The notes beneath the pieces are model-generated. The model did no database searches and was not told the origin of the DNA. It saw only the letters and a list, made by a program, of their open reading frames with translations. From a virus, in the IMG/VR virus record IMGVR_UViG_3300043137_000327, positions 1-64,000 of that record: a DNA stretch of 64,000 nt. The stretch is one strand, 5' to 3'. A program made the translations under genes and the position numbers. This document shows, in pieces, positions 1 to 45,632 of the stretch (within the stretch, counting starts at the first letter, position 1; every line of letters starts with the position of its first letter).

Positions 1-74
1 TGGTAATTAGCTCATTTGGTTAGAGCATCTCGCTGATACCGAGAAGGTGGCAGGTTCGAATCCCGCATTACCAA
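1..74 (+). tRNA. tRNA-Ile (anticodon GAT)
   Basis: Hand-folded cloverleaf: acceptor tggtaat/attacca (7 bp), D-stem gctc/gagc, anticodon stem tctcg/cgaga with loop ctGATac, T-arm gcagg-TTCGAAT-cccgc, discriminator A. Confidence 0.6.
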
Positions 75-165
75 CAAATAAGGTAATAGTTCCCAGAGTT
101 GATGTGGCCACATCCGGACTCAAAAAAAGTAAAGTTACAGATGGATGCGTAACGCCTTATTAATT

Positions 166-236
166 ACGGGTATGGTGCAATGGTAGCATACGGGTCTCCA
201 AAACCTTTGATGGAAGTTCGAATCTTTCTATCCGTG
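166..236 (+). tRNA. tRNA-Trp (anticodon CCA)
   Basis: Acceptor acgggta/tatccgt, D-stem gtgc/gcat, anticodon stem cgggt/acctt with loop ctCCAaa, T-arm ggaag-TTCGAAT-ctttc. Confidence 0.55.
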
Positions 237-241
237 CTAAT

Positions 242-313
242 AGTTCTATGGTGTAACGGATAGCACCCTTCACTACGGATGAAGAAGTTTGGGTTCGAAT
301 CCTAATAGAACTA
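242..313 (+). tRNA. tRNA-Arg (anticodon ACG)
   Basis: Acceptor agttcta/tagaact, anticodon stem cttca/tgaag with loop ctACGga, T-arm ttggg-TTCGAAT-cctaa. Confidence 0.55.
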
Positions 314-319
314 CATAAT

Positions 320-389
320 GGTCAGTTTGGTCGTGGAGGCCGGTGGGTCTGCAAAACTTACGGAGTTGGTTCGATTCCAACATTGACCT
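320..389 (+). tRNA. tRNA-Cys (anticodon GCA)
   Basis: Acceptor ggtcagt/attgacc (one GU), anticodon stem tgggt/actta (two GU, or 6-bp extended) with loop ctGCAaa, T-arm gttgg-TTCGATT-ccaac. D-arm is short/atypical. Confidence 0.45.
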
Positions 390-456
390 CAACCGGTGAA
401 GGATATTGGATATATCGCCCGACGTGGAGTTGGGAAAGTGGTTCGATTCCACAAAC

Positions 457-526
457 TGCATGGCTTAGTGGAAAAGAGTTATCTCTCATAAGGATGACCA
501 AATGAGTTCGAACCTCATACATGCAA
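457..526 (+). tRNA. tRNA-Met/Ile2 (anticodon CAT). D-arm atypical and boundaries uncertain
   Basis: Anticodon stem tatct/ggatg with loop ctCATaa, T-arm atgag-TTCGAAC-ctcat, acceptor tgcatgg/acatgca (6 of 7 pairs). The D-region is shorter than canonical. Confidence 0.4.
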
Positions 527-594
527 CAATGTATATTATACTATACAAAAACCTGGTATTTAGGGGTAAATGTATAATATATTATACGAAATAT

Positions 595-668
595 GGTGTT
601 TATAGTGTTAATGGTTAGCACGTCAGTTTGTGGTACTGATAGTATGGGTTCGAATCCCATTAATCACC
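595..668 (+). tRNA. tRNA-His (anticodon GTG) with G-1
   Basis: Anticodon stem tcagt/actga (perfect) with loop ttGTGgt, T-arm atggg-TTCGAAT-cccat, acceptor gtgttta/taatcac, plus an extra 5' G (595) pairing with discriminator C668 as expected for tRNA-His. Confidence 0.6.
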
Positions 669-673
669 CCAAT

Positions 674-759
674 AGAGAGTTACCCAAGTTGGTGAAGGGG
701 CCTGTTTGCTAAACAGGTAGGATGTTAAAGTCGCAAGGGTTCGAGCCCCTTACTCTCTA
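674..759 (+). tRNA. tRNA-Ser (anticodon GCT), class II
   Basis: Acceptor agagagt/actctct (perfect), anticodon stem cctgt/acagg with loop ttGCTaa, long variable arm (about 19 nt), T-arm aaggg-TTCGAGC-ccctt. Confidence 0.6.
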
Positions 760-768
760 CTTAAAATT

Positions 769-843
769 GCCCGTATGGCGGAATTGGAATACGCAGTGGC
801 TTTAGACACCACACAATTGAAGGTTCGAGTCCTTCTATGGGTA
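769..843 (+). tRNA. tRNA with anticodon TAG (Leu-decoding) but a class-I short variable arm. The anticodon loop could also be read as 9 nt
   Basis: Acceptor gcccgta/tatgggt (all paired, 2 GU), D-stem gcg/cgc, anticodon stem gtggc/accac (C-A mismatch at loop end) with loop ttTAGac, 6-nt variable region, T-arm gaagg-TTCGAGT-ccttc, discriminator A. Confidence 0.4.
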
Positions 844-1310
844 CAAAATTTATAACTATGGTTTACAAAAAACTAACAGGTGAAAGTGTAGAATTGGAAG
901 AATATATTACAAATTATATAGATATGTATGATGATGTTGATATACTTATTGGATGTGATTCACAAAATCGTGCTGATAAAACGACATACGCCGTAGTAGT
1001 TGCTTTGTATCATAGAGGTAAAGGAGCACACGTATTATTCAGAAGATGGCAAACTAAAAAAGAATGGACTCGTTCTACTCGTTTGTTAAATGAAGTATGG
1101 TACGCTATTGAAACGGCAGAGATGATGAAGGAAGCAGGTATTCCGAAACCTCGTTGGATTGATGTGGATTTGAACCCAGACCCTAGATATAAATCTAACG
1201 AAGTATTCAGACAGGCGGTTGGTATGGTTGAAGGTATGGGATATGAAGTTAGATATAAAACATTAGGTCCAATCGCAACATATGCGGCTGACCATTTAGT
1301 AAAAATGTAA
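837..1310 (+). CDS. hypothetical protein, possibly RNase H-like (YkuK/DUF458-like)
   Basis: 157-aa ORF. The segment ILIGCDSQNRADKTTYAVVVALYHRGKGAHVLF resembles the GTDSQ core of the DUF458 RNase H-fold family. The start overlaps the 3' end of the preceding tRNA by a few nt. Confidence 0.35.
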   Translation: MGTKFITMVYKKLTGESVELEEYITNYIDMYDDVDILIGCDSQNRADKTTYAVVVALYHRGKGAHVLFRRWQTKKEWTRSTRLLNEVWYAIETAEMMKEAGIPKPRWIDVDLNPDPRYKSNEVFRQAVGMVEGMGYEVRYKTLGPIATYAADHLVKM

Positions 1311-1387
1311 AAAAATATTAGGAAATTTGAAAAACTTTCTGTATATTTGTATAAGTTCTTTGATAGATAGGTATTTAAAAAGCAAAC

Positions 1388-1461
1388 GCTCCGTTCGTCT
1401 AATTGGTTAGGACACTCCCCTTTCACGGGAGAGCTTACGGGTTCGAGCCCCGTACGGAGTA
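1388..1461 (+). tRNA. tRNA-Glu (anticodon TTC)
   Basis: Acceptor gctccgt/acggagt (G1-U72), D-stem gtct/ggac, anticodon stem ctccc/gggag with loop ctTTCac, T-arm acggg-TTCGAGC-cccgt. Confidence 0.55.
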
Positions 1462-1559
1462 CAAAAGATTAATGTAAATCGCCTATGTGGGTGAAACTAA
1501 TTCCTCGTTTGGGGAAAAGAAGATGTGATTTCTTTAATAGGTGTAGTTAATCTTTAATT

Positions 1560-1632
1560 GCCTCCGTAGCTCATTTGGTAGAGCAGCTGATTTGTAATCA
1601 GCAGGTGGTTGGTTCGAGCCCGACCGGAGGCT
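1560..1632 (+). tRNA. tRNA-Thr (anticodon TGT)
   Basis: Acceptor gcctccg/cggaggc (perfect), D-arm tagctcatttggtagagca, anticodon stem gctga/tcagc with loop ttTGTaa, T-arm gttgg-TTCGAGC-ccgac. Confidence 0.65.
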
Positions 1633-1636
1633 CAAT

Positions 1637-1710
1637 GGGATGTTAGTAGAGTTGGTTACAATGTCGCCCTGTCACGGCGAAGGTCACGGGTTCGAGTCCC
1701 GTACATCCCG
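1637..1710 (+). tRNA. tRNA-Asp (anticodon GTC)
   Basis: Acceptor gggatgt/acatccc (perfect), anticodon stem tcgcc/ggcga with loop ctGTCac, T-arm acggg-TTCGAGT-cccgt, discriminator G. Confidence 0.6.
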
Positions 1711-1715
1711 CATAT

Positions 1716-1789
<74 letters not shown>

Positions 1790-1807
1790 CTAACAAAAGA
1801 AAAGCGT

Positions 1808-2245
1808 ATGAGCATATTAATCAGAACTTTATTTTGTATCTTTGTAATGATGCCAGCAAGTGTTAGTAAATTTGATGGTAGAAAGTTTGAGGTTGAAAAG
1901 GAAAAAGAGGAAGTTGTTGTAAAGAAACAAAATGCACTTATAGTAACGGCAACAACCTATACTGTAAGTGAATCAGAAACCGATAGTTCACCAACCATAA
2001 CGGCTAGTGGATTTAGGTTAAGTAAAACAAATCCTAAAAAGCACAGGGTAATAGCTGTGAGTAGAGATTTAAAAAAGAAACTTAGATTTGGAGATAAGGT
2101 AAGAGTTACCGGAATTGGAAAACTAAGTGGTGTATATGTAGTTAGAGATTTGATGCATAGTAGGTGGAGAAAGAAAATTGATATTTTAATCAATCCGAAA
2201 GATAAACAAACTAAGTTTCATAAAGTTAAACTTTACATATTATAA
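1808..2245 (+). CDS. 3D-domain protein (MltA-like cell-wall-binding/hydrolase-associated domain) with N-terminal signal/TM segment
   Basis: 145-aa ORF with a hydrophobic N-terminus. ATTYTVSESETDSSPTITASGFRL...HRVIAVSRDL...FGDKVRV...GVYVVRDLMHSRWRKKIDIL matches the 3D (Asp-rich) domain pattern ATAYT..G.TASG...IAVDP...G.Y.A.DTG..IDI. Confidence 0.5.
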   Translation: MSILIRTLFCIFVMMPASVSKFDGRKFEVEKEKEEVVVKKQNALIVTATTYTVSESETDSSPTITASGFRLSKTNPKKHRVIAVSRDLKKKLRFGDKVRVTGIGKLSGVYVVRDLMHSRWRKKIDILINPKDKQTKFHKVKLYIL

Positions 2246-2248
2246 GTT

Positions 2249-2333
2249 GCCTCGGTGGTGTAATGGTAGCCACGAAGGACTTAAAATCCTTTGAACCGAA
2301 AGGTTCGTGCCAGTTCGAGTCTGGCCCGAGGTA
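2249..2333 (+). tRNA. tRNA-Leu (anticodon TAA), class II
   Basis: Acceptor gcctcgg/ccgaggt, anticodon stem aagga/tcctt with loop ctTAAaa, long variable arm tgaaccgaaaggttcg, T-arm gccag-TTCGAGT-ctggc, discriminator A. Confidence 0.6.
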
Positions 2334-2445
2334 CAATGTAATGATTCGAAAGAATAGCGGAACAGATGCTAAGAATGAAATGGAAACTTTTGAAACTCGT
2401 ACAAAGGAGTGGATTCGAAACAAACCGCACAGACATTACATTAAT

Positions 2446-2519
2446 GGGGATATAGCTCAGTTGGCTAGAGCATCTGCCTTGCACGTAGAGGGTCGTGGGT
2501 TCGAATCCCTCTATCTCCA
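2446..2519 (+). tRNA. tRNA-Ala (anticodon TGC)
   Basis: Acceptor ggggata/tatctcc with a G3-U70 pair (the Ala identity element), D-arm tagctcagttggctagagc, anticodon stem tctgc/gtaga with loop ctTGCac, T-arm gtggg-TTCGAAT-ccctc. Confidence 0.65.
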
Positions 2520-2571
2520 CTATCGTTGAAATAAACGATATTAGATTTTATCGTTAGATTAAACGATAATT

Positions 2572-2648
2572 GGACTTGTAGCTCAGTCGGTTAGAGCGCC
2601 GCACTCATAATGCGTAGGTCATAGGTTCGAGCCCTATCTGGTCCACCA
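2572..2648 (+). tRNA. tRNA-Met/Ile2 (anticodon CAT) with encoded 3' CCA
   Basis: Acceptor ggacttg/ctggtcc (one T-T mismatch), D-arm tagctcagtcggttagagc, anticodon stem ccgca/tgcgt with loop ctCATaa, T-arm atagg-TTCGAGC-cctat, discriminator A followed by CCA. Confidence 0.55.
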
Positions 2649-2706
2649 TAGTTAGAATAGTTTATCTTTTTTAAGTATTCTAATATTTATATAAAAGAAA
2701 AAAACT

Positions 2707-3108
2707 ATGAAAGGTAATTGTATAAATTGTGACAAAGAGTTTGATTATATGCCATCTCAAAAAAATGGTAAGTATTGTTCAAACAAATGTCAGGGTGAGT
2801 ACTCTGTAAAACAAAGATTTGTAAAGGGTAGTGTTTGGCATCATAATATGGCAATCTATCTTAAACGAATTAGAGGAAATAAATGTGAGGATTGTGGAAT
2901 CACAGAGTGGTTGGGACATGAAATTAGTATGCATGTAGACCATATTGATGGTGATAGAACAAATAATACTTATGATAATTTAAGAATACTTTGTCCTAAT
3001 TGCCATTCACAAACTCCAACATTCGCTAGTAGAAATGTTTCAGCCGAAGGTAAAAAGAAAATGGCTGAATCCGCTAGAAAGAATGGTAGGGGTCACAAGC
3101 GAAAGTAG
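2707..3108 (+). CDS. HNH homing-type endonuclease
   Basis: 133-aa ORF. Cys-rich N-terminus (CINCDKEF...CSNKC) and the HNH core HVDHIDGDRTNNTYDNLRILCPNCHS. Embedded in the tRNA array. The stop overlaps the 5' end of tRNA-Gly. Confidence 0.8.
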   Translation: MKGNCINCDKEFDYMPSQKNGKYCSNKCQGEYSVKQRFVKGSVWHHNMAIYLKRIRGNKCEDCGITEWLGHEISMHVDHIDGDRTNNTYDNLRILCPNCHSQTPTFASRNVSAEGKKKMAESARKNGRGHKRK

Positions 3109-3171
3109 CTCATTTGGTAGAGCATCACCTTGCCAAGGTGAGGGTAGCCGGTTCGAGCCCGGTCTTTCGCT
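3099..3171 (+). tRNA. tRNA-Gly (anticodon GCC)
   Basis: Acceptor gcgaaag/ctttcgc (perfect), D-arm tagctcatttggtagagc, anticodon stem tcacc/ggtga with loop ttGCCaa, T-arm gccgg-TTCGAGC-ccggt. Confidence 0.65.
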
Positions 3172-3227
3172 CAAATGGGCTTTAGTGGGAAGCCGCAAGA
3201 ACGATAGATGTTGTTCATCCACTAAAT

Positions 3228-3299
3228 GCGAGTATAGCACAATGGTTAGTGTTCCGGCCTTCCAAGTCGGAGATTTCGGTTCGAGTCCGAATACTCGCT
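3228..3299 (+). tRNA. tRNA-Gly (anticodon TCC)
   Basis: Acceptor gcgagta/tactcgc (perfect), D-stem gcac/gtgt, anticodon stem ccggc/gtcgg with loop ctTCCaa, T-arm ttcgg-TTCGAGT-ccgaa. Confidence 0.65.
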
Positions 3300-3380
3300 C
3301 AACTCAAGTACCCATACCGCCAACGATGGGCTAAGTTAGATACAATTCCGTATTGCGGGGAGTAGAATGCTTGAGAATTT

Positions 3381-3451
3381 TGCCTGATGGTGTAGCGGTA
3401 GCACAACTGTTTTTGGTGCAGTTAGGGTAGGTTCGAATCCTGCTCGGGTAA
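3381..3451 (+). tRNA. tRNA-Gln (anticodon TTG)
   Basis: Acceptor tgcctga/tcgggta (U1-A72 as in bacterial tRNA-Gln, two GU), D-stem gtgt/gcac, anticodon stem actgt/gcagt with loop ttTTGgt, T-arm gtagg-TTCGAAT-cctgc. Confidence 0.5.
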
Positions 3452-3461
3452 CAACAAAAAA

Positions 3462-3494
3462 CCTCACAATTATTTGGCAATGTGGGGTTTTTTT
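3462..3494 (+). terminator. Rho-independent terminator hairpin (cctcaca/tgtgggg + T7) closing the tRNA array
   Basis: 7-bp stem with an 11-nt loop followed by TTTTTTT. The loop and T-run overlap the -33/-7 elements of the next promoter. Confidence 0.6.
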
Positions 3495-3504
3495 CGTATA
3501 TTTA
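3473..3504 (+). promoter_or_regulatory. Bacteroidetes-type promoter, class A (TTTGGCAAT...TTTCGTATATTTA)
   Basis: TTTG at 3473-3476 and TAnnTTTA at 3497-3504 with about 20-bp spacing. Member of the repeated about 30-bp promoter family. Confidence 0.55.
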
Positions 3505-3522
3505 CGGAGTAAAATGTAAGTT

Positions 3523-4179
3523 ATGATAAACAATTTAAAGTTAATAAAGCCGTTACTAAACTTCGAAACGAAGGGTGACTTCTATATGCTATATGTTTTT
3601 AAACGTAAGAAGGACCAGCCTGAAGGTGAAAGGGATAATCATCAATCGGTAAGAACTATTAAAACTTATTGTATTGAGAGTATTGACCATTTAGAACGTA
3701 GATGGGATGAAGTAATTCAGATGTGTGAGATGTTTAAAGCAAGAGCATATATACACATTCAGAAACAAAATCATTTTGATGTAAGTTTGAATATGATGGT
3801 TACTCTCGCACAACGAATACAAGATGGTAACACAAATCAAAAAGGTTTATTCGATTCAGTAGTTGGTCAAATCAAAACGCAAGAGAAGAGATGGATTATT
3901 GATGTAGATGATATAAAAGATGCAAGTCCAATTATGATGGCGTATATTGATAATGAATGTAAACCATACGGTTCTAAAATTGAATCAATAATTCCAACAA
4001 AAAGTGGTCATCATTTGATTACTAAGAAATTTGATGTAATGGAATTTAAAAAAAAATATCCAAACATCGATATTCAGAAAAAGAATCCAACATTATTATA
4101 TTATCCAAATTCATTGGATTTAGAAAATAATAATTTGGAAACTATTAAAAAATTAAGAGATACTTTAAAAGAAGAATAA
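3523..4179 (+). CDS. hypothetical protein (first gene of the RNA-repair operon)
   Basis: 218-aa ORF immediately downstream of a class A promoter. No motif recognised confidently. Confidence 0.5.
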   Translation: MINNLKLIKPLLNFETKGDFYMLYVFKRKKDQPEGERDNHQSVRTIKTYCIESIDHLERRWDEVIQMCEMFKARAYIHIQKQNHFDVSLNMMVTLAQRIQDGNTNQKGLFDSVVGQIKTQEKRWIIDVDDIKDASPIMMAYIDNECKPYGSKIESIIPTKSGHHLITKKFDVMEFKKKYPNIDIQKKNPTLLYYPNSLDLENNNLETIKKLRDTLKEE

Positions 4180-4742
4180 TGAAAGTAATATTTTTAGACC
4201 ACGATGGTGTTATATGTTTATCCACAGAGTGGGGAGGTAGATTTAAGAAACAAAGAGAAGCAGGACGTAAACTAAGTCAATCAGTTGGTTCATTGCCAGT
4301 TCTTTCTCGATTTGATAATTTTAATAAGAAAGCAATCAATATACTAAATGAAATATTGGAAGAAACTAACGCTGAAATTGTTATCTCATCTGATTGGAAA
4401 CGATGGGCAAGTGTTGAGGAGATGGGTGAATATTATGAATCACAGGGAATCAAAAAGAAACCAATCGCCTTTACGAAAAACTTAGGTGATTGTGATGTAC
4501 CCGAAAACTTCATATGGTCACGACAATGGGATTTAGAACAATCTCGCTCATTGGAGATACTTCAATATCTTAGAGATAACAATGATATAACACATTGGGT
4601 TTCTATTGATGATTTGGATATGGGTAAGAATGGTGAGGATTGGAAAAACTGGGGGTTAGATAACTTCGTATTAACGCCTAAAAGTAGAGAAGGTATTAAA
4701 CAAAGTGGAATAAAAGAAAAGATTATAGAATTCTTAAAATAA
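4179..4742 (+). CDS. HAD-superfamily phosphatase (Pnkp 3'-phosphatase-like)
   Basis: 187-aa ORF. N-terminal HAD motif I FLDHDGVI (DxDG). Sits beside the kinase and ligase genes. Start overlaps the previous stop. Confidence 0.5.
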   Translation: MKVIFLDHDGVICLSTEWGGRFKKQREAGRKLSQSVGSLPVLSRFDNFNKKAINILNEILEETNAEIVISSDWKRWASVEEMGEYYESQGIKKKPIAFTKNLGDCDVPENFIWSRQWDLEQSRSLEILQYLRDNNDITHWVSIDDLDMGKNGEDWKNWGLDNFVLTPKSREGIKQSGIKEKIIEFLK

Positions 4743-4747
4743 GAGTT

Positions 4748-5401
4748 ATGAAAATAGTATTAGAAAAAGGACAGAAGTTATGGTTTACAAGTGATACACA
4801 CTACAACCATGCTAATATTTGTTCCGCTACAACAAAGTGGACAGACCCGGTGACTTGTAGAGAATTCAAAACATTAGAACATATGAACGCTCACCTCGTT
4901 GGTAACATCAACGAAATGGTCGGACAGGATGATATTCTATTTCACTTAGGTGATTGGAGTTTTGGTGGATTTGAAAGTATCGAACAATTCAGAAATCAAA
5001 TTGTTTGTAAAAACATTCACATCATTACAGGCAACCACGACCATCACATTGAAAACAACAGAGAAGGTTGTCAATCGCTTTTTGCTTCGGTAAACAAATA
5101 CCTAAACTTAAATGTGAAATTTCCAAATGGAAGTGGTGGATATGATGATATACGATTTGCTCTAATGCACTTTCCAATAGCAAGTTGGGATAATATGGCG
5201 AGAGGCGCTATCCATTTGCATGGGCACGTTCACTTTGAACCTAGGTTACGAATTGGTGCTGGAAAAATGATGGATGTGGGTGTGGATGGAAACGGATTGT
5301 ACCCAATTCAAATGAGTGAAGTATTGAGATTAATGAGAAACCAACCAATCAAAAGTATGTTCATATTTGACCATCACGAGATTGTGGAGAATTATAAGTA
5401 A
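4748..5401 (+). CDS. calcineurin-like metallophosphoesterase
   Basis: 217-aa ORF with the motifs FTSDTHYNH, LFHLGDWSFGG, ITGNHDHH and HLHGHVHF (metallophosphoesterase signature blocks). Confidence 0.7.
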   Translation: MKIVLEKGQKLWFTSDTHYNHANICSATTKWTDPVTCREFKTLEHMNAHLVGNINEMVGQDDILFHLGDWSFGGFESIEQFRNQIVCKNIHIITGNHDHHIENNREGCQSLFASVNKYLNLNVKFPNGSGGYDDIRFALMHFPIASWDNMARGAIHLHGHVHFEPRLRIGAGKMMDVGVDGNGLYPIQMSEVLRLMRNQPIKSMFIFDHHEIVENYK

Positions 5402-5402
5402 A

Positions 5403-5585
5403 ATGAAAAAGTGGATTTGTAAAATAATAGGTCACAAATACTCATATAATTTTGGGTGGATGCCCAATAAGTGTATATGTAATAGGTGTGGTATGAAATG
5501 GAAAAGCATTAGTAACCCATATTACATACCGGGTGAATCAAATCCATTAATAACCGATATGCATATTTGGATAGAAGATAAATAA
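5403..5585 (+). CDS. small Cys-rich (putative zinc-ribbon) protein
   Basis: 60-aa ORF MKKWICKIIGHKY...CICNRCGMKW starting at the ATG just after the previous stop. The ORF-track start at 5367 overlaps the upstream gene. Confidence 0.35.
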   Translation: MKKWICKIIGHKYSYNFGWMPNKCICNRCGMKWKSISNPYYIPGESNPLITDMHIWIEDK

Positions 5586-5591
5586 TAAATT

Positions 5592-6008
5592 ATGATACCA
5601 AAAATATTAACATTAGTAAGAGGGTTGCCAGGAAGTGGTAAAACGACATTCGCAAATACTATCACAAATGAATTTTCAGTATGTGAAGCTGATAAGTTTT
5701 TCTATGATAAGGAGGGAAACTATAACTTTGATAGTAATAAATTAACTGCTGCACATAAATGGTGTAGAGATGAGGTAGAAATGCGAATGAAAGATAATCA
5801 ACTTAATGAACAATTCTATCCGCATATTGTAGTATCCAATACATTCACCAAACGATGGGAAATGGATACATATTTTGGATTAGCAAAGCAATATGGATAT
5901 AGAGTTCATTCAATCATTGTTGAAAATAGACACGATGGTGATAATGTACATAATGTGCCAGAAGAAAAAATAAAACAAATGGCTAATAGATTTGAAATTC
6001 AATTATAA
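5592..6008 (+). CDS. pnk: polynucleotide 5'-kinase (T4 Pnk kinase-domain-like P-loop kinase)
   Basis: 138-aa ORF. Walker A [35 protein letters not shown] parallels T4 Pnkp [39 protein letters not shown] parallels T4 VPIDVLRSMYKSM. Confidence 0.75.
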   Translation: [138 protein letters not shown]

Positions 6009-6013
6009 AAGAA

Positions 6014-7159
6014 ATGGAAAATAATAATTCAGTTTGCTATGTAGCAACAATTAATGAAATCAAACCAATTGAAGGAGCTGATAACATTGAGTTAGCAGTA
6101 GTTGGTGGTTGGAATTGTATCACTAAAAAAGGTGAGCAAAAAATAGGTGATGAAGTTATCATCGCTACAACCGATGCCGTAATTCCGGAATCATTATCGG
6201 ATGAGATGGGAGTTACTAGCTATCTTCGTAAAGGTGGTAGAGTTAGGACTGTGAAATTAAGAGGTGTATATTCAGAATGTTTAATCATTCCAAATAAATT
6301 CTTACATGGTAGAAGTACTATCGGAGATTGGGATTTGAAAGAAGGTAGTGATTGTATGCATATTTTTGGTATTGTTAAATTTGAACCACCCGTAAAAATG
6401 GTTCAATTGGCAAGTGGTAAGAAAATCAGATACCAAGATAATCCAAACTTTCACGTATATTATAAGTTTCCAAACTTAAAGAATGTACCTGGAATGTTTA
6501 CTGAAGAAGATACGGTTGAAATCACTCGTAAAATTCACGGAACAAATGCCAGATATGGTATTGTTAGGAAACTTAAATTATCAGTTTGGCATAATATTAA
6601 GAAGTTCTTTGGATTTGGTAACAAATGGGATGAGTTCGAATTCGTAGTTGGTTCGCATAATGTTGAGAAAGGTTCAGATTCTAATGGATTCTACGATACA
6701 AACGTATGGTATGAAATCGATAAGAAATATGGTATCAAACAAAAGTTATGGGATTATGTTAAGAATGAAGATATGGATGTAGTTATCGGAGATGGTATCA
6801 CTTTATATGGTGAGATTTACGGAGCTGGAATCCAAAAGGGATACGATTATGGGTTGAGTGAGATTGAGTTCGTAGGATTCGATGTAAAGGAGGATGGTGA
6901 GTATTTAGACCCAATCAACTCTAAACTTTTAATCAAAGATATTTTGGAATTACCATATGTAGAGATTTTACACTTTGGTAGGTGGTCACAAGAAGTACAA
7001 GATAAGTATGTATTCAATAATTTCATTGAAGGTACTAAAGTGCCGGAGGAGGGTATTGTAATCAAACACCAATCTAAAGGTAGAGAGAAGATAGCAAAGG
7101 TAATAAATCCTGATTATTTAATTTTCGCTGAAAAACACAATGTTGGCGATTCTCATTAA
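6014..7159 (+). CDS. rnl: RNA ligase (T4 Rnl2-like nucleotidyltransferase) with N-terminal tRNA-binding OB-fold domain
   Basis: 381-aa ORF. N-terminus VATINEIKPIEGADNIELAVVGGWNCITKKGEQKIGDEVII resembles the Myf/EMAP-type tRNA-binding domain. Ligase motif I RKIHGTN (K-x-H-G), motif IIIa YGEIYGAGIQKG (T4 Rnl2 FGEFAGPGIQKN), motif IV PEEGIVIKH. Confidence 0.75.
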   Translation: MENNNSVCYVATINEIKPIEGADNIELAVVGGWNCITKKGEQKIGDEVIIATTDAVIPESLSDEMGVTSYLRKGGRVRTVKLRGVYSECLIIPNKFLHGRSTIGDWDLKEGSDCMHIFGIVKFEPPVKMVQLASGKKIRYQDNPNFHVYYKFPNLKNVPGMFTEEDTVEITRKIHGTNARYGIVRKLKLSVWHNIKKFFGFGNKWDEFEFVVGSHNVEKGSDSNGFYDTNVWYEIDKKYGIKQKLWDYVKNEDMDVVIGDGITLYGEIYGAGIQKGYDYGLSEIEFVGFDVKEDGEYLDPINSKLLIKDILELPYVEILHFGRWSQEVQDKYVFNNFIEGTKVPEEGIVIKHQSKGREKIAKVINPDYLIFAEKHNVGDSH

Positions 7160-7165
7160 AATAAA

Positions 7166-7197
7166 TTTGGAAAATCCAAATTAATATAGTATATTTG
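7166..7197 (+). promoter_or_regulatory. Bacteroidetes-type promoter, class B (AATTTGGAAAA...TATATTTG)
   Basis: TTTG 7166-7169 and TATATTTG 7190-7197, spacing 20. This places the first ORF-track ATG (7195) inside the promoter. Confidence 0.5.
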
Positions 7198-7224
7198 AAA
7201 AACAAAACGATAAAACTTAAAGAT

Positions 7225-7653
7225 ATGAACGTAAAGCAGGCCTTAAAGGCAAAAAACAAATTGGTTGCAGATTTGAAAGCTCAATATGAGATTTTGAAAA
7301 AGTATAATTCAATAGAAGAAGGAAATCCTCGTAGATATTCAATGGCAGAAGCATTGGATAAGGTTACTGAATTGACAAATGAGTTGGTTCAATTGAAAGC
7401 CGAATTGCATAGAGCAAACCAACCGGTGTATGATAAAATCTTCGCATTGGCTGAATTGAAAGGTTTGGTAAAGGAATTAAAGAAAGTTCCAACGGATGAA
7501 GGAAAGCAAGACTCCCGATATGGAAGTGTTGTTTCAGTAAAAGAAGTAGAATTATCAATTGTAGATATCCAAAAAAAAGTGGATATTCTAAATGTAAAAA
7601 TTGAGCAGTTGCAAGATGAATTGGATGTTCATAACGCAACAACTCAAATCTAA
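7225..7653 (+). CDS. hypothetical coiled-coil protein
   Basis: ORF 7195..7653 trimmed to the ATG at 7225 (MNVKQ...) because 7195 lies in the -7 element. Heptad-rich K/E/L sequence. Confidence 0.45.
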   Translation: MNVKQALKAKNKLVADLKAQYEILKKYNSIEEGNPRRYSMAEALDKVTELTNELVQLKAELHRANQPVYDKIFALAELKGLVKELKKVPTDEGKQDSRYGSVVSVKEVELSIVDIQKKVDILNVKIEQLQDELDVHNATTQI

Positions 7654-8142: not shown

Positions 8143-8228
8143 GGAAGGATGGCAGAGTTGGTCTATCGCGCTTGACTTGAAATCAAGTGTACTGAAAGGT
8201 ACCGTGGGTTCGAATCCTACTCCTTCCG
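8143..8228 (+). tRNA. tRNA-Ser (anticodon TGA), class II
   Basis: Acceptor ggaagga/tccttcc (perfect), anticodon stem cttga/tcaag with loop ctTGAaa, long variable arm, T-arm gtggg-TTCGAAT-cctac, discriminator G. Confidence 0.6.
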
Positions 8229-8434
8229 CAAAAATAAATTGTAGTGTGTTGGAAAATGATTTGTACGTGTGCAAATCTGGCAGACAAGCCCTCCTGTCTC
8301 GGGGGTGATGAGTACGAAATAGGTTAGTAATATGGGGTAGACCACCAAGCCGGCCGGCGGATGTTACTAACTGAATCGCATCGTGGATGGTTCGAATCCT
8401 CCCATTACAGCTAAATCTTTATCTTATCATCATT

Positions 8435-8862: not shown

Positions 8863-9612
8863 ATGATAAAAGCAGGAAGATACGATTTAAACGAAGCATC
8901 GTTAGGTAGAATATATCAGCACGTTGTTTCTAATCCTAAAATGAAAAATTGGGGAGTCGTAACAGCAAGTAGAGGTGAATTAACATCTGCTGAAAATAAG
9001 CAACGAAACAAAGAATTAGAAGCTGATTTGCGTAAAATGGGATATGGATTTGTTCACGTAGATGGTATGTGGCAAGAATGTAGAAAGCCTGATACCGAAT
9101 ATAAGGATTGTCCGGATGATATGAAAGTTCCAACGCAAGAGAAATCGTTATTCATACCTAATATATCAAAAGAAGATGTTCAATCATTGGGTAAGAAGTA
9201 TGAGCAAGATAGTGTATTATTTGCAGATGAAGAAACTAAAGCAAAAGGTGAGGCAACATTCATCGATTCAAAATCAGGTGAAGCATTTAATATTGGAAAG
9301 TTCTCACCTGGAAAAGTAGCACAAGGATATAGTAAATTGAAAGGTGGGCAAGTATTTACATTTGAACCAAAAGATGAACCACAAAAAGTTGATGAACCAA
9401 AAGTTCAAACAAAAGCTGAGCCGGGTTCTCAAAAGATGGTAGCAAATCCGACACAATTGAAATCACTTTTACCAAAAGGTATAGCTGATAAGATGGTTAA
9501 GAACCCTGAAACGGGCAAAATGATTAAAGTAAAATCCGCTTTGAAGTATGATAAAGAATCGCCAGTATATAAAGCAACTGTTGCTATGGTTAAACAGGCT
9601 TCAAAAAAGTAG
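8863..9612 (+). CDS. hypothetical protein with Lys-rich C-terminus
   Basis: 249-aa ORF followed by a terminator. Confidence 0.5.
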   Translation: MIKAGRYDLNEASLGRIYQHVVSNPKMKNWGVVTASRGELTSAENKQRNKELEADLRKMGYGFVHVDGMWQECRKPDTEYKDCPDDMKVPTQEKSLFIPNISKEDVQSLGKKYEQDSVLFADEETKAKGEATFIDSKSGEAFNIGKFSPGKVAQGYSKLKGGQVFTFEPKDEPQKVDEPKVQTKAEPGSQKMVANPTQLKSLLPKGIADKMVKNPETGKMIKVKSALKYDKESPVYKATVAMVKQASKK

Positions 9613-9771: not shown

Positions 9772-11946
9772 ATGAGTAATATGAGTTATCTATCCAAATT
9801 TAGTTCCAACAAAAAATCTAAAGTATCATCCGCATCATCCTTTTGGGCTGATGAATGGAGTAACTATGATGACGAAATGTTTACCGAATCTTACTATGAT
9901 GCTGAAACGGATTCATTTCAAACAAAAAAGTTATCATCTTCACAATCATCGACTGTGGAAATGTTAAGGTTATCGGCTCACCGAAGAGCAATTGGTAACT
10001 TTGTTAATATCTTAACCAACAAAAATATCCCTGTTAAGTTTTACAAAAAAGGTGATTCTTATACTGATGGTAAATCGGTAGTATTATCAGCCGAAGTTAA
10101 GCCAGAGAAATTTGATGTGGCGGTTGGATTAGCATTGCACGAAGCATCTCACATTAATTTAACAAATTTCGATACCTTTAGTAATTATTCAGTTCCTCAA
10201 AGTTTGAGAGAATTGTTTGAAGTAAAGGGAGTTTACAATGGGGAGGTTTGGCAGTTAATTAAGAACCTTACCAATTGGATTGAAGATAGACGTATTGACC
10301 AATACATCTTCAATACTTGTCCAGGTTATAGAGATTACTATCGTGCTTTATACGATGAATACTTTAATGATAAAGTAATTGATAAGGGTATTGTTTCCGA
10401 TGAATTTACTGATGAAACAATTGATTCATATATGTTCCGTGTTATCAATCTTACAAACCCTAACACTGTTTTAAACAAACTTAAAGGTTTGGCTAAGATT
10501 TATTCATTGGTTGAACTTAAAAACATTAGTAGATTAAAATCAACTTATGATAGTTTATTGGTAGCTGAGCAAATCGCTGAAATCATTGGTTTAGCAATTG
10601 ACCCGCTTCCACAATCACAACCAAAACCACAAGATGGTGGACAAGGTGAGCAAGATAAAGATGGTGAACCACAACAAACCGAAGGTAGTGGTGGTGAAGG
10701 TGGTGAAAGTGAGCAAAATGAGATTGACAATGATGCTTCAGATGATGAACAATCTCCTTCAACAGGCGGTGGTTCTATGAAAAATCAACCAAATATGAAT
10801 GGTAGTGAATCGGATGAAGATAGTAATTCTGAAGCTGATGGTGATAAAGATGATGCCAATGGTAAAGCTAAAGAAACATTATCTGATAATGTTAAGAAGC
10901 AACTTGACAAAAAGATTCAGAATCAGAAAGACTTTATCAATAACCAAATCAAAAAGAAAGCAATTACTAAGAAAGATAATCAGTTGCTTGATTCTGTTGA
11001 AAAAAGTGGTACTGAAATGGTTAGTGTGGGTGGAGAAGTTCAAACTAATGGTGTGTTCCTTAAAGGTACACAATGTATTGTATCAAAACGTATGACCGAA
11101 GAGTTGATGAAAGATTACGCTTTCCCATTCGCTGATTGGAGTACATATGGTGGCGAAGGTAAGTTCTACTCATACAATGAGGCAACTTTAAGAAAGGGTA
11201 TTCAATTGGGTACGTTGTTAGGTAAACGTTTGGCAATTCGTAGTGAAGAGCGTGTTACTGATAATCCCCGCCAAAAGAGTGGTAAGATTGACCGTAGATT
11301 GATTGCCGGACTTGGTTATGATTATGTAAATGTATTCAGTACTAAGGATGTAGATAAATTTAAGAAAGCTAACTTACATATCAGTTTAGATGGTAGTGGT
11401 TCTATGAGTGGTGGTACTTGGGATAAGGCACTTACAACTACAATCGCTATTTGTAAAGCAGCATCGATGGTTTCTAACTTAGATGTTCAGGTTACAATTA
11501 GAGGTATATGGGGTACGAAAGCTTACATCTGCCAGGCATATGATAGTAGAGTTGATAAGTTTGATAAAGTGAAACGTTTGTTCCCTGCACTTAGAGCTAA
11601 TGGTACAACGCCTGAAGGTTTATGTTACGAAGCAACTATGAAATACTTTGTTCCTACTACCAAAGATGTGGATTCATACTTCTTAAACATATGTGATGGT
11701 GAGCCAAACTTTAGTGAAGATGGTACTAACTATTATGGTGATGTTGCCGTACTACATACTCGTAAGATGGTTAAGAAAATTAAAGAGCAGGGTGTTAGAG
11801 TGATGGCTTATTTCGTATCTGATTACGACTCCGACTCATCAAAACGTAAATTCAAAACGATGTATGGTGAAGATAGCCGTTTTATTAACATTAACGATAT
11901 CATGCCAATCACTAAGACTTTGAATGAATTATTCCTTACTAAGTAG
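9772..11946 (+). CDS. VWA-domain protein, CobT-like (acidic central low-complexity region plus C-terminal von Willebrand A / MIDAS)
   Basis: 724-aa ORF. Asp/Glu/Gly/Ser-rich segment (about aa 280-370). MIDAS motif DGSGSMSGGTWDKALTTT (DxSxS). Immediately upstream of a MoxR-type AAA+ ATPase. Confidence 0.6.
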   Translation: MSNMSYLSKFSSNKKSKVSSASSFWADEWSNYDDEMFTESYYDAETDSFQTKKLSSSQSSTVEMLRLSAHRRAIGNFVNILTNKNIPVKFYKKGDSYTDGKSVVLSAEVKPEKFDVAVGLALHEASHINLTNFDTFSNYSVPQSLRELFEVKGVYNGEVWQLIKNLTNWIEDRRIDQYIFNTCPGYRDYYRALYDEYFNDKVIDKGIVSDEFTDETIDSYMFRVINLTNPNTVLNKLKGLAKIYSLVELKNISRLKSTYDSLLVAEQIAEIIGLAIDPLPQSQPKPQDGGQGEQDKDGEPQQTEGSGGEGGESEQNEIDNDASDDEQSPSTGGGSMKNQPNMNGSESDEDSNSEADGDKDDANGKAKETLSDNVKKQLDKKIQNQKDFINNQIKKKAITKKDNQLLDSVEKSGTEMVSVGGEVQTNGVFLKGTQCIVSKRMTEELMKDYAFPFADWSTYGGEGKFYSYNEATLRKGIQLGTLLGKRLAIRSEERVTDNPRQKSGKIDRRLIAGLGYDYVNVFSTKDVDKFKKANLHISLDGSGSMSGGTWDKALTTTIAICKAASMVSNLDVQVTIRGIWGTKAYICQAYDSRVDKFDKVKRLFPALRANGTTPEGLCYEATMKYFVPTTKDVDSYFLNICDGEPNFSEDGTNYYGDVAVLHTRKMVKKIKEQGVRVMAYFVSDYDSDSSKRKFKTMYGEDSRFININDIMPITKTLNELFLTK

Positions 11947-12238: not shown

Positions 12239-13462
12239 ATGAGAAATTCAAAAAAAGAAGTGTTAGTAGGTTACACTAATGAAATCTACAAAGTTGAGAA
12301 TGTTGGTAATCGTTTTAACTTAGTTAATACGGCCGGTGAAGTAGAAACCGATTCTACAATCGTTTCATCTTTCCTTAGAAAGAAAGCAAACAAAAGTGGT
12401 TCAGCTATCCGTTCCCACATCAATAAAAACGGACAGAAATCGTTTCGTATGGTTGATATGAATCAATATACGGAAATGTTGGTTAAACCAATCAACACCG
12501 CAATCGCTGAGACTGTGGTTGAAAATCCAACCGACCATACGGCAGTTATCGATTTTATCCACAAAGATGGTATCTCCCTTAAACCTAAGAATCTTATTAT
12601 GACTGAATTGAAGTGGAAATACTTACTTCGTTCAGCAGTTAGAGCAAAAAATATTATGATGACTGGACCTGCAGGTAGTGGTAAAACTATGGCAGCTAAA
12701 GCATTAGTTGAAGCTCTTAATCGCCCGTTCTTCTACTTTAACTTAGGAGCAACGCAAGACCCCAGAGCATCACTTATTGGTAATACTCACTTCAGTAAAG
12801 CTGATGGTACTTACTTCAACGAATCAGCATTCGTTAAAGCTATTAAGACTCCGTATTCAGTTATCTTATTGGATGAGTTATCCCGTTCACATCCCGAAGC
12901 ATGGAATATCTTAATGACTGTGTTAGACCAAACCCAACGTTACTTACGTTTGGATGAGGCTGTTGATTCACCAATCGTTAAAGTAGCCGAAGGTGTTACC
13001 TTTATCGCTACCGCTAACATCGGTAATGAATTTACATCGACACGTGTTCTTGACCGTGCATTGGTTGACCGTTTCGTAACGATTGAGGTTGATGTGTTGA
13101 ACGCTGAGCAAGAGCTTGAATTACTTACTATGTTGTATCCCGATACAAACGCTGAGGACTTAAGAGCAATTGCCGAAATCACTCATCACACTCGTGAGCA
13201 AATCAAATCCGATGTGGGTAAAATTAGCACAGCAGTATCGACTCGTACTTCGGTAGAGATGGCTGGATTGATTTACGATGGGTTCAACTTAATCGAAGCA
13301 GCTGAAGTTGCTATCTTCCCAATGTATTCGCAAGATGGTGGTATGGATTCAGAACGTACTTACATCAAACAATTAGTTCAAAAGTATGTAAGAGCTGAAG
13401 ATAATTCAGGCTTATATGATAACGTTGTGGAAGAACCACAAAAGGATGAAATTGTTTGGTAA
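12239..13462 (+). CDS. MoxR-family AAA+ ATPase, CobS-like
   Basis: 407-aa ORF. Walker A MMTGPAGSGKTMAAKAL, Walker B ILLDELSRSHPEAWN, sensor region ATANIGNEF. Partner of the upstream VWA protein. Confidence 0.7.
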   Translation: MRNSKKEVLVGYTNEIYKVENVGNRFNLVNTAGEVETDSTIVSSFLRKKANKSGSAIRSHINKNGQKSFRMVDMNQYTEMLVKPINTAIAETVVENPTDHTAVIDFIHKDGISLKPKNLIMTELKWKYLLRSAVRAKNIMMTGPAGSGKTMAAKALVEALNRPFFYFNLGATQDPRASLIGNTHFSKADGTYFNESAFVKAIKTPYSVILLDELSRSHPEAWNILMTVLDQTQRYLRLDEAVDSPIVKVAEGVTFIATANIGNEFTSTRVLDRALVDRFVTIEVDVLNAEQELELLTMLYPDTNAEDLRAIAEITHHTREQIKSDVGKISTAVSTRTSVEMAGLIYDGFNLIEAAEVAIFPMYSQDGGMDSERTYIKQLVQKYVRAEDNSGLYDNVVEEPQKDEIVW

Positions 13463-14404: not shown

Positions 14405-15328
14405 ATGGCGTATGATATGCAAGATGTTTGGGCACAAAGACAGGCTGAAATCGAAAGAGAACGAGAACAATTAAAAGTAGAACAACAATTAAAAATTAAA
14501 CAAATGATTAAGAAAATTTTAGTAGGTATTGGAGCATTTATCGGATTAGTAGTATTATTTAATTCGTGTGAAAGAATTGATGCAGGACACGTTGGTGTTA
14601 AGGTCAATCAGTATGGTGATAATAAAGGTGTAGATGATGTAGTAGCAGTTACAGGTATGGTATTTTATAATCCACTTACAACTGCCATTTATGAGTTCCC
14701 TACATTTATTCAACATAAGGAATACAAAGGAGAGAATTCATTCATCGTAAATAGTAAGGATGGTTCGGAATTTAATGTATCACCTATTATGAACTATTCA
14801 GTACAAAGGGATAAAGTACCGGCAATCTTTAGTAAGTATCGTAGACCTTTGGAAGATATCGAAGAAGGATTCTTAAAGACCGCAGTGTATGATGCATTCA
14901 GATTAGCAACTAACAAATATACGGCTGATGAATTGATTAGTAATAGAGCAGTATTTGAAATCGAAGTTCGTAGATTATTAGATGGGCAGTTATTAAAGGA
15001 GGGATTTGTAATCAATCAGTTCACATCGAATTTGATTTACCCTGAAACCTTTAAGAAATCTATTGAGGCTAAGAACAACGCAGTTCAGGCAGCATTGAGA
15101 GCAGAGAACGAAGTTAAAACGGCTGAAGCACAAGCGAAGATTAAAGTAGCAACCGCAGAAGGTAATGCACAGGCGATGTTAACATCAGCAAAAGCTGAAG
15201 CTGAATCAAATAGAATGAAGCAACAAACCCTAACACCATTGTTATTACAATTGGAGTACATCAACAAATGGGATGGTAAGTTGCCAGTTTATGGTGAAGT
15301 ACCACAAATGTTTAAGAACATTAAATAA
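14405..15328 (+). CDS. SPFH/band-7 (prohibitin/HflK-like) membrane protein
   Basis: 307-aa ORF with an N-terminal TM helix. The C-terminal Ala/Glu-rich coiled segment AALRAENEVKTAEAQAKIKVATAEGNAQAMLTSAKAEAESNRMKQ is typical of SPFH-domain proteins. Confidence 0.65.
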   Translation: MAYDMQDVWAQRQAEIEREREQLKVEQQLKIKQMIKKILVGIGAFIGLVVLFNSCERIDAGHVGVKVNQYGDNKGVDDVVAVTGMVFYNPLTTAIYEFPTFIQHKEYKGENSFIVNSKDGSEFNVSPIMNYSVQRDKVPAIFSKYRRPLEDIEEGFLKTAVYDAFRLATNKYTADELISNRAVFEIEVRRLLDGQLLKEGFVINQFTSNLIYPETFKKSIEAKNNAVQAALRAENEVKTAEAQAKIKVATAEGNAQAMLTSAKAEAESNRMKQQTLTPLLLQLEYINKWDGKLPVYGEVPQMFKNIK

Positions 15329-22345: not shown

Positions 22346-23980
<1,635 letters not shown>

Positions 23981-24066: not shown

Positions 24067-24300
24067 ATGAAATCAGAAAACCTAAAAAGAGAAATTAACG
24101 AAGGACATTATTTAGAATTAATGGATAGGTTATATGTGTTAGCATCCACATTACACGACCATTGTTTAGAACATCCATTAGCTGAATACGATGAAGAAAT
24201 TTACACATCCATAGAAACAGCTATTGAAGCAACCTATGATGCATATCAATTGGTAGGAAGTAAAGAATTTGAAAATGAAGATGAGAATAACGCACATTAG
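24067..24300 (+). CDS. hypothetical protein
   Basis: ORF 24031..24300 trimmed to the ATG at 24067 because 24031-24061 is the promoter. Confidence 0.4.
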   Translation: MKSENLKREINEGHYLELMDRLYVLASTLHDHCLEHPLAEYDEEIYTSIETAIEATYDAYQLVGSKEFENEDENNAH

Positions 24301-36144: not shown

Positions 36145-36214
36145 CAACGCAATTCGGTATATTTGGTTATTCTCTGATTGATTGATTTACATTTACACAA
36201 AGCGTTACATTAGA

Positions 36215-41803: not shown

Positions 41804-41804
41804 T

Positions 41805-42443: not shown

Positions 42444-42450
42444 TAATAAT

Positions 42451-43778: not shown

Positions 43779-43780
43779 TA

Positions 43781-45607: not shown

Positions 45608-45632
45608 TTAAAAATAATTAAAAATATATAAA

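Follow-up and report, generated by a model that had tools for sequence, protein, structure and literature searches.

The window analyzed here is a stretch of 64,000 nt of viral DNA (positions 1 to 64,000 of IMG/VR record IMGVR_UViG_3300043137_000327) that forms part of a 93-kb JGI metagenome contig. We found that its tRNA array is followed by a candidate RNA-repair operon of five plus-strand open reading frames (ORFs), which encode, in order, a protein with the archaeo-eukaryotic primase (AEP/PrimPol) fold (gene 1, 3523–4179), a HAD phosphatase (4179–4742), a calcineurin-type metallophosphoesterase (4748–5401), a P-loop kinase (5592–6008) and an RNA ligase (6014–7159). The coordinates and strand given for these co-directional genes by a first-pass annotation, made from the sequence alone, were reproduced exactly. 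The motifs it quoted were all found, namely FLDHDGV in the HAD protein, DTH/GD/GNHD/GHVH in the phosphoesterase, GLPGSGKT in the kinase and KIHGTN/GEIYGAGIQKG/EGIV in the ligase, and the profile searches it had proposed placed HAD_SAK_2, Metallophos, AAA_33, PHA02142-OB and RNA_ligase above the Pfam gathering scores. The first two genes overlap by 1 nt and the following junctions measure 5, 190 and 5 nt. The 190-nt gap holds a small Cys-rich ORF (5403–5585, plus strand) with a borderline DUF1660 match (21.4 bits, at the cut-off); it is present in 2 of 80 related loci, is absent from the JGI gene calls, may be spurious or a mobile small gene, and is a doubtful member of the module. As for gene 1, the long start at 3523 appears correct, since the N-terminal MIxN..LIK is kept across an alignment of 61 diverse homologues. 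When cultured phages were searched at the DNA level, the phosphoesterase alone was matched (68% identity to a gene of Flavobacterium phage immuto, there also located directly after tRNAs) and no close cultured relative of the operon was found.

A perfect copy of the promoter-like site TTGGCA-17-TATATT (3474–3502, plus strand) lies just 5′ of gene 1 and comes after a hairpin and T-run located 3′ of tRNA-Gln. The corresponding extended motif, TTGGMA-N17-TATATT (also written roughly TTGGCAAT-N9-TTTCGTATATT), occurs 17 times in the window when at most one mismatch is allowed, against 4.15 expected, and none of 100 shuffles reached 17. Most copies are on the plus strand (1319, 3474, 7167, 9714, 12158, 14090, 22280, 24031, 26622, 34498, 35431, 40227, 47713, and 48074), several of those checked are positioned just upstream of ORF starts, and the next copy after the operon (7167–7195) is located directly 3′ of the ligase gene. 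A general sigma-70 scan of the window was not enriched (17 vs. 24.8 expected), the enrichment being confined to the extended motif. Thus, what the first-pass annotation called a class A promoter ahead of gene 1 is a genuine recurrent element, and it probably represents a phage promoter class. Since the five genes are tightly packed and bracketed by two copies of the enriched motif, they look like one transcription unit. A hairpin (CCTCACA/TGTGGGG) with seven T's (3459–3495), placed directly after tRNA-Gln and overlapping the −35 element of the site in front of gene 1, may be a terminator or processing signal that closes the tRNA array; no intrinsic terminator was found 3′ of the ligase gene.

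The ligase consists of an N-terminal OB domain (6014–6403, plus strand; PF21189, PHA02142-OB, 54.8 bits), which is the Rnl5 signature and a tRNA-binding-type OB fold, and a nucleotidyltransferase (NTase) domain (6461–7159, plus strand; PF09414, RNA_ligase, E = 3e-14, 54.1 bits) with motif I K173-IHGTN, motif III E267, motif IV E346, and motif V K359/K362. K173, E267, E346, and K362 do not vary among 26 relatives. Of these residues, E267 and E346 have aligned equivalents in the Naegleria gruberi ligase NgrRnl (PDB 5COT), the best solved relative of the protein (E = 4e-15 with the single sequence and 6.5e-22 with a profile). The protein ends 19 residues past motif V, without a C-domain, and for this reason its architecture is that of the Rnl5 family, i.e., an N-terminal OB and a C-terminal NTase domain with no C-domain (PMC4408790, PMC7261155). 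Close relatives carry the JGI label "RNA ligase (TIGR02306 family)", and Rnl5-type ligases are annotated as "RNA ligase" in 451 phage records. The first-pass annotation had classified the enzyme as Rnl2-type. The motifs on which it relied are present, and motif I does resemble that of T4 Rnl2, which reads KIHGTN. Yet, the Rnl2 family is defined by an NTase domain plus an Rnl2-specific C-terminal domain, for which there is no sequence beyond motif V, and T4 Rnl2 matches the ligase profile only at positions 260–324, around motif III (E = 7.6e-4). From sequence, we therefore classify the ligase as Rnl5-type (DraRnl/NgrRnl) and not as Rnl2. A classical ATP-dependent DNA ligase, the case named in the first-pass annotation as contrary to its proposal, was rejected for gene 5, which gives no DNA_ligase_A_M match and has its OB domain at the N-terminus and none at the C-terminus.

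Some features set the protein apart from the characterized members of the family. Against the NCBIfam model TIGR02306 (RNA_lig_DRB0094) it scores 95.3 bits, below the equivalog cut-off of 151.15, in an alignment that spans model positions 6–339 of 341. In NgrRnl, the lysine nucleophile and the metal/phosphate ligands are K170, D172, E227, E312, and K326; His175 in motif I occupies the position of the metal-binding D172, by which one ligand differs. In the N-domain, the counterparts of NgrRnl D53 and K121 are D54 and K122, both invariant in the relatives, whereas NgrRnl R4 is without a counterpart, as no basic residue occurs within the first 8 residues of any relative.

The OB domain had been described as an unusual Myf/EMAP-like addition by which the ligase is tethered to tRNA. 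The fold is indeed shared with the tRNA-binding (Myf/EMAPII/CsaA/Trbp111) proteins in three dimensions, the N-domain model resting on a shallow alignment (pLDDT 80). However, every Rnl5 ligase, whether from a phage or not, carries this domain as a hallmark (PMC4408790). The N-domain of NgrRnl touches the metal and the gamma-phosphate of ATP, and adenylylation depends on it while step 3 does not (PMC7261155); the residues that correspond to its D53 and K121 are conserved here. Because the OB domain defines Rnl5 and serves adenylylation in NgrRnl, it is neither unusual nor evidence of tethering. The Pfam tRNA_bind model (PF01588) gave no match to the ligase at E ≤ 0.01, the region being claimed by PF21189, and no tRNA binding by any Rnl5 enzyme was reported in the literature searched. 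We therefore regard a tRNA-binding tether that would give the ligase its tRNA specificity as unlikely, and an attractive but unsupported inference is corrected in this respect.

The remaining enzymes are those expected of end healing. The HAD protein (plus strand) belongs to the standalone Swiss-Army-Knife (SAK) RNA-repair family (PF18143, HAD_SAK_2; E = 2e-22, 80.5 bits, cut-off 27.5, model positions 1–136 of 139), and its D8-x-D10 nucleophile motif can be read in the sequence as D8-H-D10-G-V. A single-sequence PDB search returned no match. The family has a described role in RNA repair (PMC7824862, section 3.4.9), and we predict that the protein is an RNA 3′-phosphatase. The metallophosphoesterase (plus strand) matches PF00149 marginally (Metallophos, 22.9 bits, cut-off 21.5) and phrog_547 at E = 6e-43, and in the PDB it matches aq_1665 (E = 1e-3). 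Its metal-binding motifs are complete (D16-T-H18, G67-D68, G94-N-H-D97, and G158-H-V-H161), and it is a putative 2′,3′-cyclic phosphodiesterase/phosphomonoesterase.

The kinase, a 138-aa member of the T4 Pnk/PSTK-like group (plus strand), contains the P-loop G11-LPGSGKT18 and matches AAA_33 (E = 2e-12, 48 bits), phrog_2071 (4e-42), and phrog_505, "polynucleotide kinase" (1e-7). Invariant residues include the P-loop G11–T18, E32, and D34, as well as N83–T86 and E111–H114. Family profiles, and not single sequences, were needed for PDB matches of both the kinase and the ligase NTase domain: as a single sequence, the kinase gave nothing useful (at the top a Schlafen P-loop, E = 0.08), and the NTase domain was matched repeatedly, but spuriously, to RecA. 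With a profile of 16 relatives, the best matches of the kinase were T4 Pnk entries 1ly1/1ltq (E = 2–3e-4, some 108 residues aligned); the tRNA-dependent kinase PSTK (1e-3) and the RNA-repair protein Pnkp1 (0.03) came next. The block similarity to T4 Pnk noticed at first reading is hence weak but real (profile E = 2e-4, no match with the single sequence). The features that mark the T4-type Pnk clade, namely the P-loop, a catalytic Asp about 17–20 residues downstream and profile similarity, are all present, the similarity being weak, and the protein is probably a polynucleotide 5′-kinase. A T4 Pnkp-type kinase-HAD fusion is absent: the kinase is standalone and the HAD protein is encoded by a separate gene two positions upstream. 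The predicted healing and sealing activities are accordingly spread over separate polypeptides (kinase, HAD, phosphoesterase, and ligase), as initially proposed. The same small kinase family is encoded in 645 phage records, among them rV5-like, Pakpunavirus, Campylobacter, and Vibrio phages. In Escherichia phage PMBT16, the kinase gene overlaps a phosphoesterase gene 3.5 kb from tRNAs and no RNA ligase gene is next to it; kinase and phosphoesterase may form a unit of their own.

Gene 1 (plus strand) encodes a standalone protein of 218 aa, for which the first-pass annotation offered no more than "hypothetical". Its place in the co-directional set stands, while the label gives way to an AEP/PrimPol fold with all three catalytic motifs. 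AEP catalytic domains are defined by motifs I hhhDhD/E, II sxH, and III hD/E, in this order (PMC5862659), and the protein carries all of them in that order: W124-I-I-D127-V-D129 (D127 and D129 in 61/61 homologues), G162-H-H164 (G162 in 60/61 and H164 in 59/61), and I182-D183 (D/E at position 183 in 55/61, preceded by I/V/L), in addition to the invariant R28, K30, and R74. We are confident of the fold, and the protein is a putative nucleotidyltransferase. Pfam models run against the 61 family members at E ≤ 1 gave scattered chance matches only, no NCBIfam match was obtained, the family profile found no PDB sequence match, the PHROG assignment is phrog_14949 ("unknown function"), and a BFVD structure search returned "uncharacterized" phage proteins only. 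Yet, the family is large, with 6,578 clusters at 90% identity and 1,419 at 50%; apart from one Pol_BBD fusion, no domain fusion was matched in the homologues. Among cultured-phage records, matches come from phages of Bacteroidota hosts, along with a small number of uncultured or metagenomic entries. The homologue of Cellulophaga phage phi17:2 is located directly 5′ of an annotated tRNA nucleotidyltransferase gene, and that of crAss-like cr116_1 is 1.5 kb away from an RNA ligase gene. On one metagenomic contig, the homologue is found near an Rnl5-type ligase gene and also near UDG and 5′-3′ exonuclease genes. A replicative primase was set aside as the identity of gene 1, as the protein has 218 aa and lacks a helicase, zinc-binding, or PriCT domain and its neighbors are mostly of RNA-repair type; such a role is possible. 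Gene 1 is probably part of the repair system.

The module sits within a tRNA region. ARAGORN detected 19 tRNAs in the window, 18 of which are confirmed by Rfam, in agreement with the about 19 counted at first reading beside the module. Of these, 17 form the plus-strand array at 1–3452 (ARAGORN, Rfam), which runs on upstream on the source contig, and since tRNA-Ser(tga) (8143–8229, plus strand; ARAGORN, Rfam) lies downstream of the module, the five genes are embedded in the tRNA region. The part of the contig upstream of the window (1–6415) contains a tmRNA, eight more tRNAs, a second P-loop kinase (243 aa, phrog_12810/phrog_2071/phrog_505-like) and a small HAD protein (127 aa, phrog_415, "polynucleotide kinase"); owing to this second pair, the tRNA region is flanked on both sides by kinase/phosphatase genes.

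To assess conservation, we collected 80 IMG/VR loci around relatives of the ligase (63–83% identity, many on contigs of 230–290 kb), which represent 62 distinct architectures. The kinase gene is present in 52 of the 62, directly upstream of the ligase gene in 28; the phosphoesterase gene is present in 45 and both together in 40. Gene 1 (17/62) and the HAD gene (12/62) are less frequent, and all five genes co-occur in two architectures. At least one tRNA is found within 8 kb in 38 architectures and at least five in 24, and because they occur on either side of the ligase gene, the tRNA linkage survives rearrangement. An alternative order, gene 1-kinase-ligase-phosphoesterase, recurs where gene 1 is only 32–38% identical. 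The conserved core is therefore the kinase-ligase-phosphoesterase trio, with the HAD and AEP genes as accessories. A second sample was centered on gene 1 and comprised 80 loci of distant homologues, found with a 10-sequence subset, as the 61-sequence alignment was too divergent. The commonest neighbors were genes for the phosphoesterase (23), the Rnl5-type ligase (20) and the kinase (11), followed by a PolyA_pol-head CCA-adding-like NTase, directly adjacent in 11 loci, and ATP-dependent DNA ligase (11). Band_7/SPFH (11+7), cREC (8), GIY-YIG, and thymidylate synthase genes were also encountered. At least one RNA-repair-type neighbor occurs in 54/80 loci and a strictly defined one in 31/80.

These distributions bear on the question whether the five genes act together at all. 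They could be mere neighbors in an auxiliary region; for instance, the phosphoesterases might degrade cyclic-nucleotide or NAD-derived defence signals, nucleotides might be the substrate of the kinase, and the ligase might have a role distinct from that of the AEP protein. Such a view accords with the low frequency of the HAD gene and gene 1 in the 62 architectures and with the mosaic make-up of the region, which includes an HNH endonuclease and other small genes. Likewise, the kinase-phosphoesterase pair of rV5-like coliphages lacks an adjacent RNA ligase, the Rnl5-type ligase of Pakpunavirus K8 lacks the kinase and phosphoesterase, and an action against nucleotide signals has been suggested for the calcineurin-type phosphodiesterases of phages (PMC7824862, section 3.4.8). 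We nonetheless hold this explanation to be quite improbable: one promoter-like site precedes a set of genes that overlap or follow each other closely, the kinase and phosphoesterase stay with the ligase in 40/62 architectures through changes of gene order, the independent gene-1-centered sample yields the same three partners on top, and the combined predicted activities are exactly those needed to ligate RNase-cut ends.

The main rival assumes one pathway with a different substrate, i.e., LigD-like ribonucleotide-patch repair of nicks or gaps in DNA or RNA:DNA hybrids. The AEP protein would extend a DNA 3′ end, or fill a gap, with ribonucleotides, 5′-OH and 3′-phosphate ends would be cleaned by the kinase and phosphoesterases, and the Rnl5 ligase would seal the resulting 3′-ribo/5′-PO4 nick in phage DNA, e.g., after host nuclease attack or in replication. 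5′-kinase/3′-phosphatase healing equally suits DNA breaks, as in T4 Pnkp and mammalian PNKP. The substrate required by Rnl5 enzymes is a nicked duplex in which RNA provides the 3′-OH strand, and loss of DraRnl delays genome reassembly, for which its authors proposed action after a ribonucleotide-incorporating repair polymerase (PMC5397189); gene 1, with its AEP fold and intact motifs, is a candidate for that polymerase. Moreover, in some phages its homologues are found near genes for ATP-dependent DNA ligase, ThyA/ThyX, UDG, 5′-3′ exonuclease, and dNMP kinase. On the other hand, the HAD protein belongs to the RNA-repair-associated SAK family, the next-best solved relatives of the kinase after T4 Pnk are RNA/tRNA kinases (PSTK and Pnkp1), and gene-1 homologues are most often positioned beside RNA-type partners, including CCA-adding-like enzymes and cREC. 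The module also lies inside a tRNA region, with tRNAs within 8 kb in 38/62 related architectures, and the absence of gene 1 from 45/62 ligase neighborhoods indicates that the ligase is independent of it. On balance, we think such patch repair unlikely to be the function of the module.

We instead consider it reasonably probable that the module is a phage RNA heal-and-seal operon of known kind that serves counter-defence. The operon would be transcribed from the promoter-like site at 3474–3502. Host ribonucleases that hit the translation apparatus, such as anticodon nucleases, would leave 2′,3′-cyclic-phosphate and 5′-OH ends; the calcineurin-type phosphoesterase and the SAK-type HAD protein would, presumably between them, convert the 3′ end to 3′-OH, and the Pnk-like kinase would phosphorylate the 5′-OH. 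The Rnl5-type ligase would self-adenylylate on K173, aided by its N-terminal OB domain, and seal the 3′-OH/5′-PO4 break, which would be nick-like in a folded tRNA. Finally, the AEP-fold protein may add or fill in nucleotides when residues have been lost, thereby taking the usual nucleotidyltransferase slot of such systems. The counter-defence against host tRNA nucleases put forward in the first-pass annotation is thus upheld as regards the heal-and-seal set, its synteny, the proximity of tRNAs and the logic known from other phages (PMC7824862, PMC5511906), while the tRNA substrate is a presumption. As the one known Rnl5 phenotype, that of DraRnl, points to ribonucleotide-patch DNA repair (PMC5397189), tRNA is a putative substrate of the ligase.

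Several observations weigh against this heal-and-seal reading. The characterized Rnl5 enzymes seal duplex nicks with a 3′-OH RNA strand, the sole known phenotype, that of DraRnl, concerns post-irradiation DNA repair (PMC5397189), and T4 uses Rnl1, which is no nick-sealer, for tRNA anticodon loops. The ligase itself falls under the TIGR02306 cut-off (95 vs. 151 bits), has His175 at the position of NgrRnl Asp172 and is without an Arg4 equivalent. tRNAs are missing within 8 kb in 24/62 architectures, the five-gene set is found in 2/62 only, and 26/80 gene-1 loci lack any RNA-repair-type neighbor; gene-1 neighborhoods also include ATP-dependent DNA ligase (11 loci), thymidylate synthases, UDG, and 5′-3′ exonuclease. 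Furthermore, the counts overstate the support, because related loci are not phylogenetically independent. The phage is uncultured, the target host nuclease is postulated, and all parts of the reading are drawn from sequence and gene context.

Phage RNA repair is a recognized counter to translation-blocking host nucleases, and the module as first described is a further example. It is also a compact, fully split version built on an Rnl5-type nick-sealer, whose substrate question gains a tractable genetic context from the conserved trio. In addition, a large uncharacterized AEP-fold family is tied to repair systems, which suggests a nucleotide-adding step and makes the choice between tRNA repair and ribonucleotide-patch DNA repair testable. 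Tentatively, gene 1 may define an unrecognized, abundant family of standalone AEP/PrimPol-fold nucleotidyltransferases that partner Rnl5-type ligases and end-healing enzymes. One possible role would be to refill nucleotides lost from damaged tRNAs before sealing, in a "heal-fill-seal" pathway, and the frequent direct adjacency of gene 1 to CCA-adding-like enzymes hints at tRNA 3′-end rebuilding. Alternatively, its product could be the long-postulated ribonucleotide-incorporating polymerase that makes 3′-ribo nicks for Rnl5 ligases. If either role is true, the Rnl5 family, whose physiology has been called "uncharted", gains a defined partner and pathway.

Other genes of the window may be accessory to the module. 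Inside the tRNA array we found genes encoding an RNaseH_like protein (837–1310; PF04308), a PHROG family of unknown function (phrog_21574, 1808–2245), and an HNH endonuclease (2707–3108; Pfam/PHROG). The RNaseH_like gene is retained upstream of the module in 10/80 related loci, and its product may have a role in tRNA processing or another RNA-directed function. A Band_7/SPFH protein (14405–15328, plus strand), whose family recurs beside gene-1 homologues (18/80 loci), is a possible accessory; for SPFH modules, a scaffolding function in RNA repair has been suggested. Further downstream, a second calcineurin phosphoesterase (24269–25057) and a cREC_REC cyclic-phosphate-processing receiver protein (25337–25816) are possible further end-healing genes, separated by a 97-aa ORF, all three on the plus strand. 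A role of cREC in phage RNA repair has been described (PMC7824862). A further copy of the promoter motif precedes these two genes and that of a WYL_2 protein (27608–27880), which suggests that a distinct second set of genes serves end healing or cyclic-phosphate sensing. A second tRNA-Gly(tcc) far from the array (36074–36145) was called by ARAGORN only and scores below the Rfam tRNA gathering score; this element may be degenerate or tRNA-like. The gene at 9772–11946 encodes a protein of 724 aa that contains a vWA MIDAS-like motif (DGSGSM) and an extended acidic region of low complexity; next to it lies the gene of a MoxR-type AAA+ ATPase (12239–13462). Each follows a copy of the promoter motif, and the two look like a MoxR-vWA pair. 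According to the JGI Pfam tables, auxiliary genes in 8863–9612, 22349–23980, and 40562–55615 encode S-AdoMet-lyase-like, Cpn60/GroEL chaperonin, and Trp-halogenase-like proteins, two 2OG-Fe(II) oxygenases, HSP20, a UvdE endonuclease, a peptide deformylase, and a carbamoyltransferase.

Among known systems, the module shares with T4 Pnkp plus Rnl1, which counters the PrrC anticodon nuclease, a 5′-kinase, a DxD/HAD 3′-phosphatase, an ATP-dependent RNA ligase, and phage tRNAs. In T4, however, kinase and phosphatase form one polypeptide, whereas here the kinase, the HAD protein, and an extra metallophosphoesterase are separate; the T4 ligase is Rnl1 with a tRNA-specific C-domain, in contrast to the Rnl5-type nick-sealing family and the added AEP-fold gene found here. 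The bacterial Pnkp/Hen1 system, represented by Clostridium thermocellum Pnkp, combines the same three chemistries and employs a calcineurin-type metallophosphoesterase as the 3′-end healer, and the CthPnkp kinase domain and Pnkp1 are among the PDB matches of the kinase profile (E = 0.03–0.11). Yet, it is one multidomain protein with an Rnl3/Rnl4-type ligase domain, accompanied by the Hen1 methyltransferase, while here the parts are divided among separate genes and the ligase belongs to the Rnl5 type; neither the 10 proteins encoded at 837–7653 nor the JGI Pfam table within ±10 kb yielded a methyltransferase domain. The Rnl5 ligases DraRnl (Deinococcus radiodurans DRB0094) and NgrRnl differ from the present enzyme in the motif I His in place of Asp172, the missing Arg4 counterpart, and the TIGR02306 score below the cut-off, and also in context, since this ligase is encoded within an end-healing operon, whereas Rnl5 physiology is otherwise "uncharted" bar the DNA-repair phenotype of DraRnl (PMC5397189).

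The closest parallels in gene content come from other phages. In jumbo phages, tRNAs occur with ATP-grasp RNA ligases, PNK, and standalone SAK HAD proteins (Iyer et al., 2021, PMC7824862), a repertoire that also includes occasional calcineurin-like phosphatases, cREC, and accessory nucleotidyltransferases and is viewed as a counter to host attack on translation; Cluster E mycobacteriophages encode an RNA ligase, Pnk, and tRNAs, likewise read as tRNA repair (PMC5511906). In the jumbo-phage survey, though, most phage ligases are Rnl1 or Rnl2, the nucleotidyltransferases are RlaP and CCA-adding enzymes, and AEPs are assigned to DNA priming only (PMC7824862). Divergent AEP domains in predicted RNA-repair proteins (Burroughs and Aravind, 2016, as cited in PMC5862659 and PMC8211822) provide a precedent for recruitment beside ligases, kinases, and phosphatases; as described in those citing papers, they are part of multidomain proteins "primarily in kinetoplastids", whereas gene 1 encodes a 218-aa standalone protein with no Pfam model. 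We found no description of a standalone AEP-fold partner in phage RNA-repair neighborhoods in the phage literature searched, which covers the work of Burroughs and Aravind (2016) through papers citing it. LigD of bacterial non-homologous end joining also unites an AEP nucleotidyltransferase, a 3′-end-cleaning phosphoesterase, and a ligase that favors 3′-ribonucleotide nicks (cited in PMC5397189), but its ligase domain is a classical ATP-dependent DNA ligase, it lacks a kinase and it cooperates with Ku at DNA double-strand breaks, whereas the operon is without Ku or a DNA-ligase domain. The logic of the module is thus already known, and both Rnl5-type ligases and this type of kinase are already annotated in phage records.

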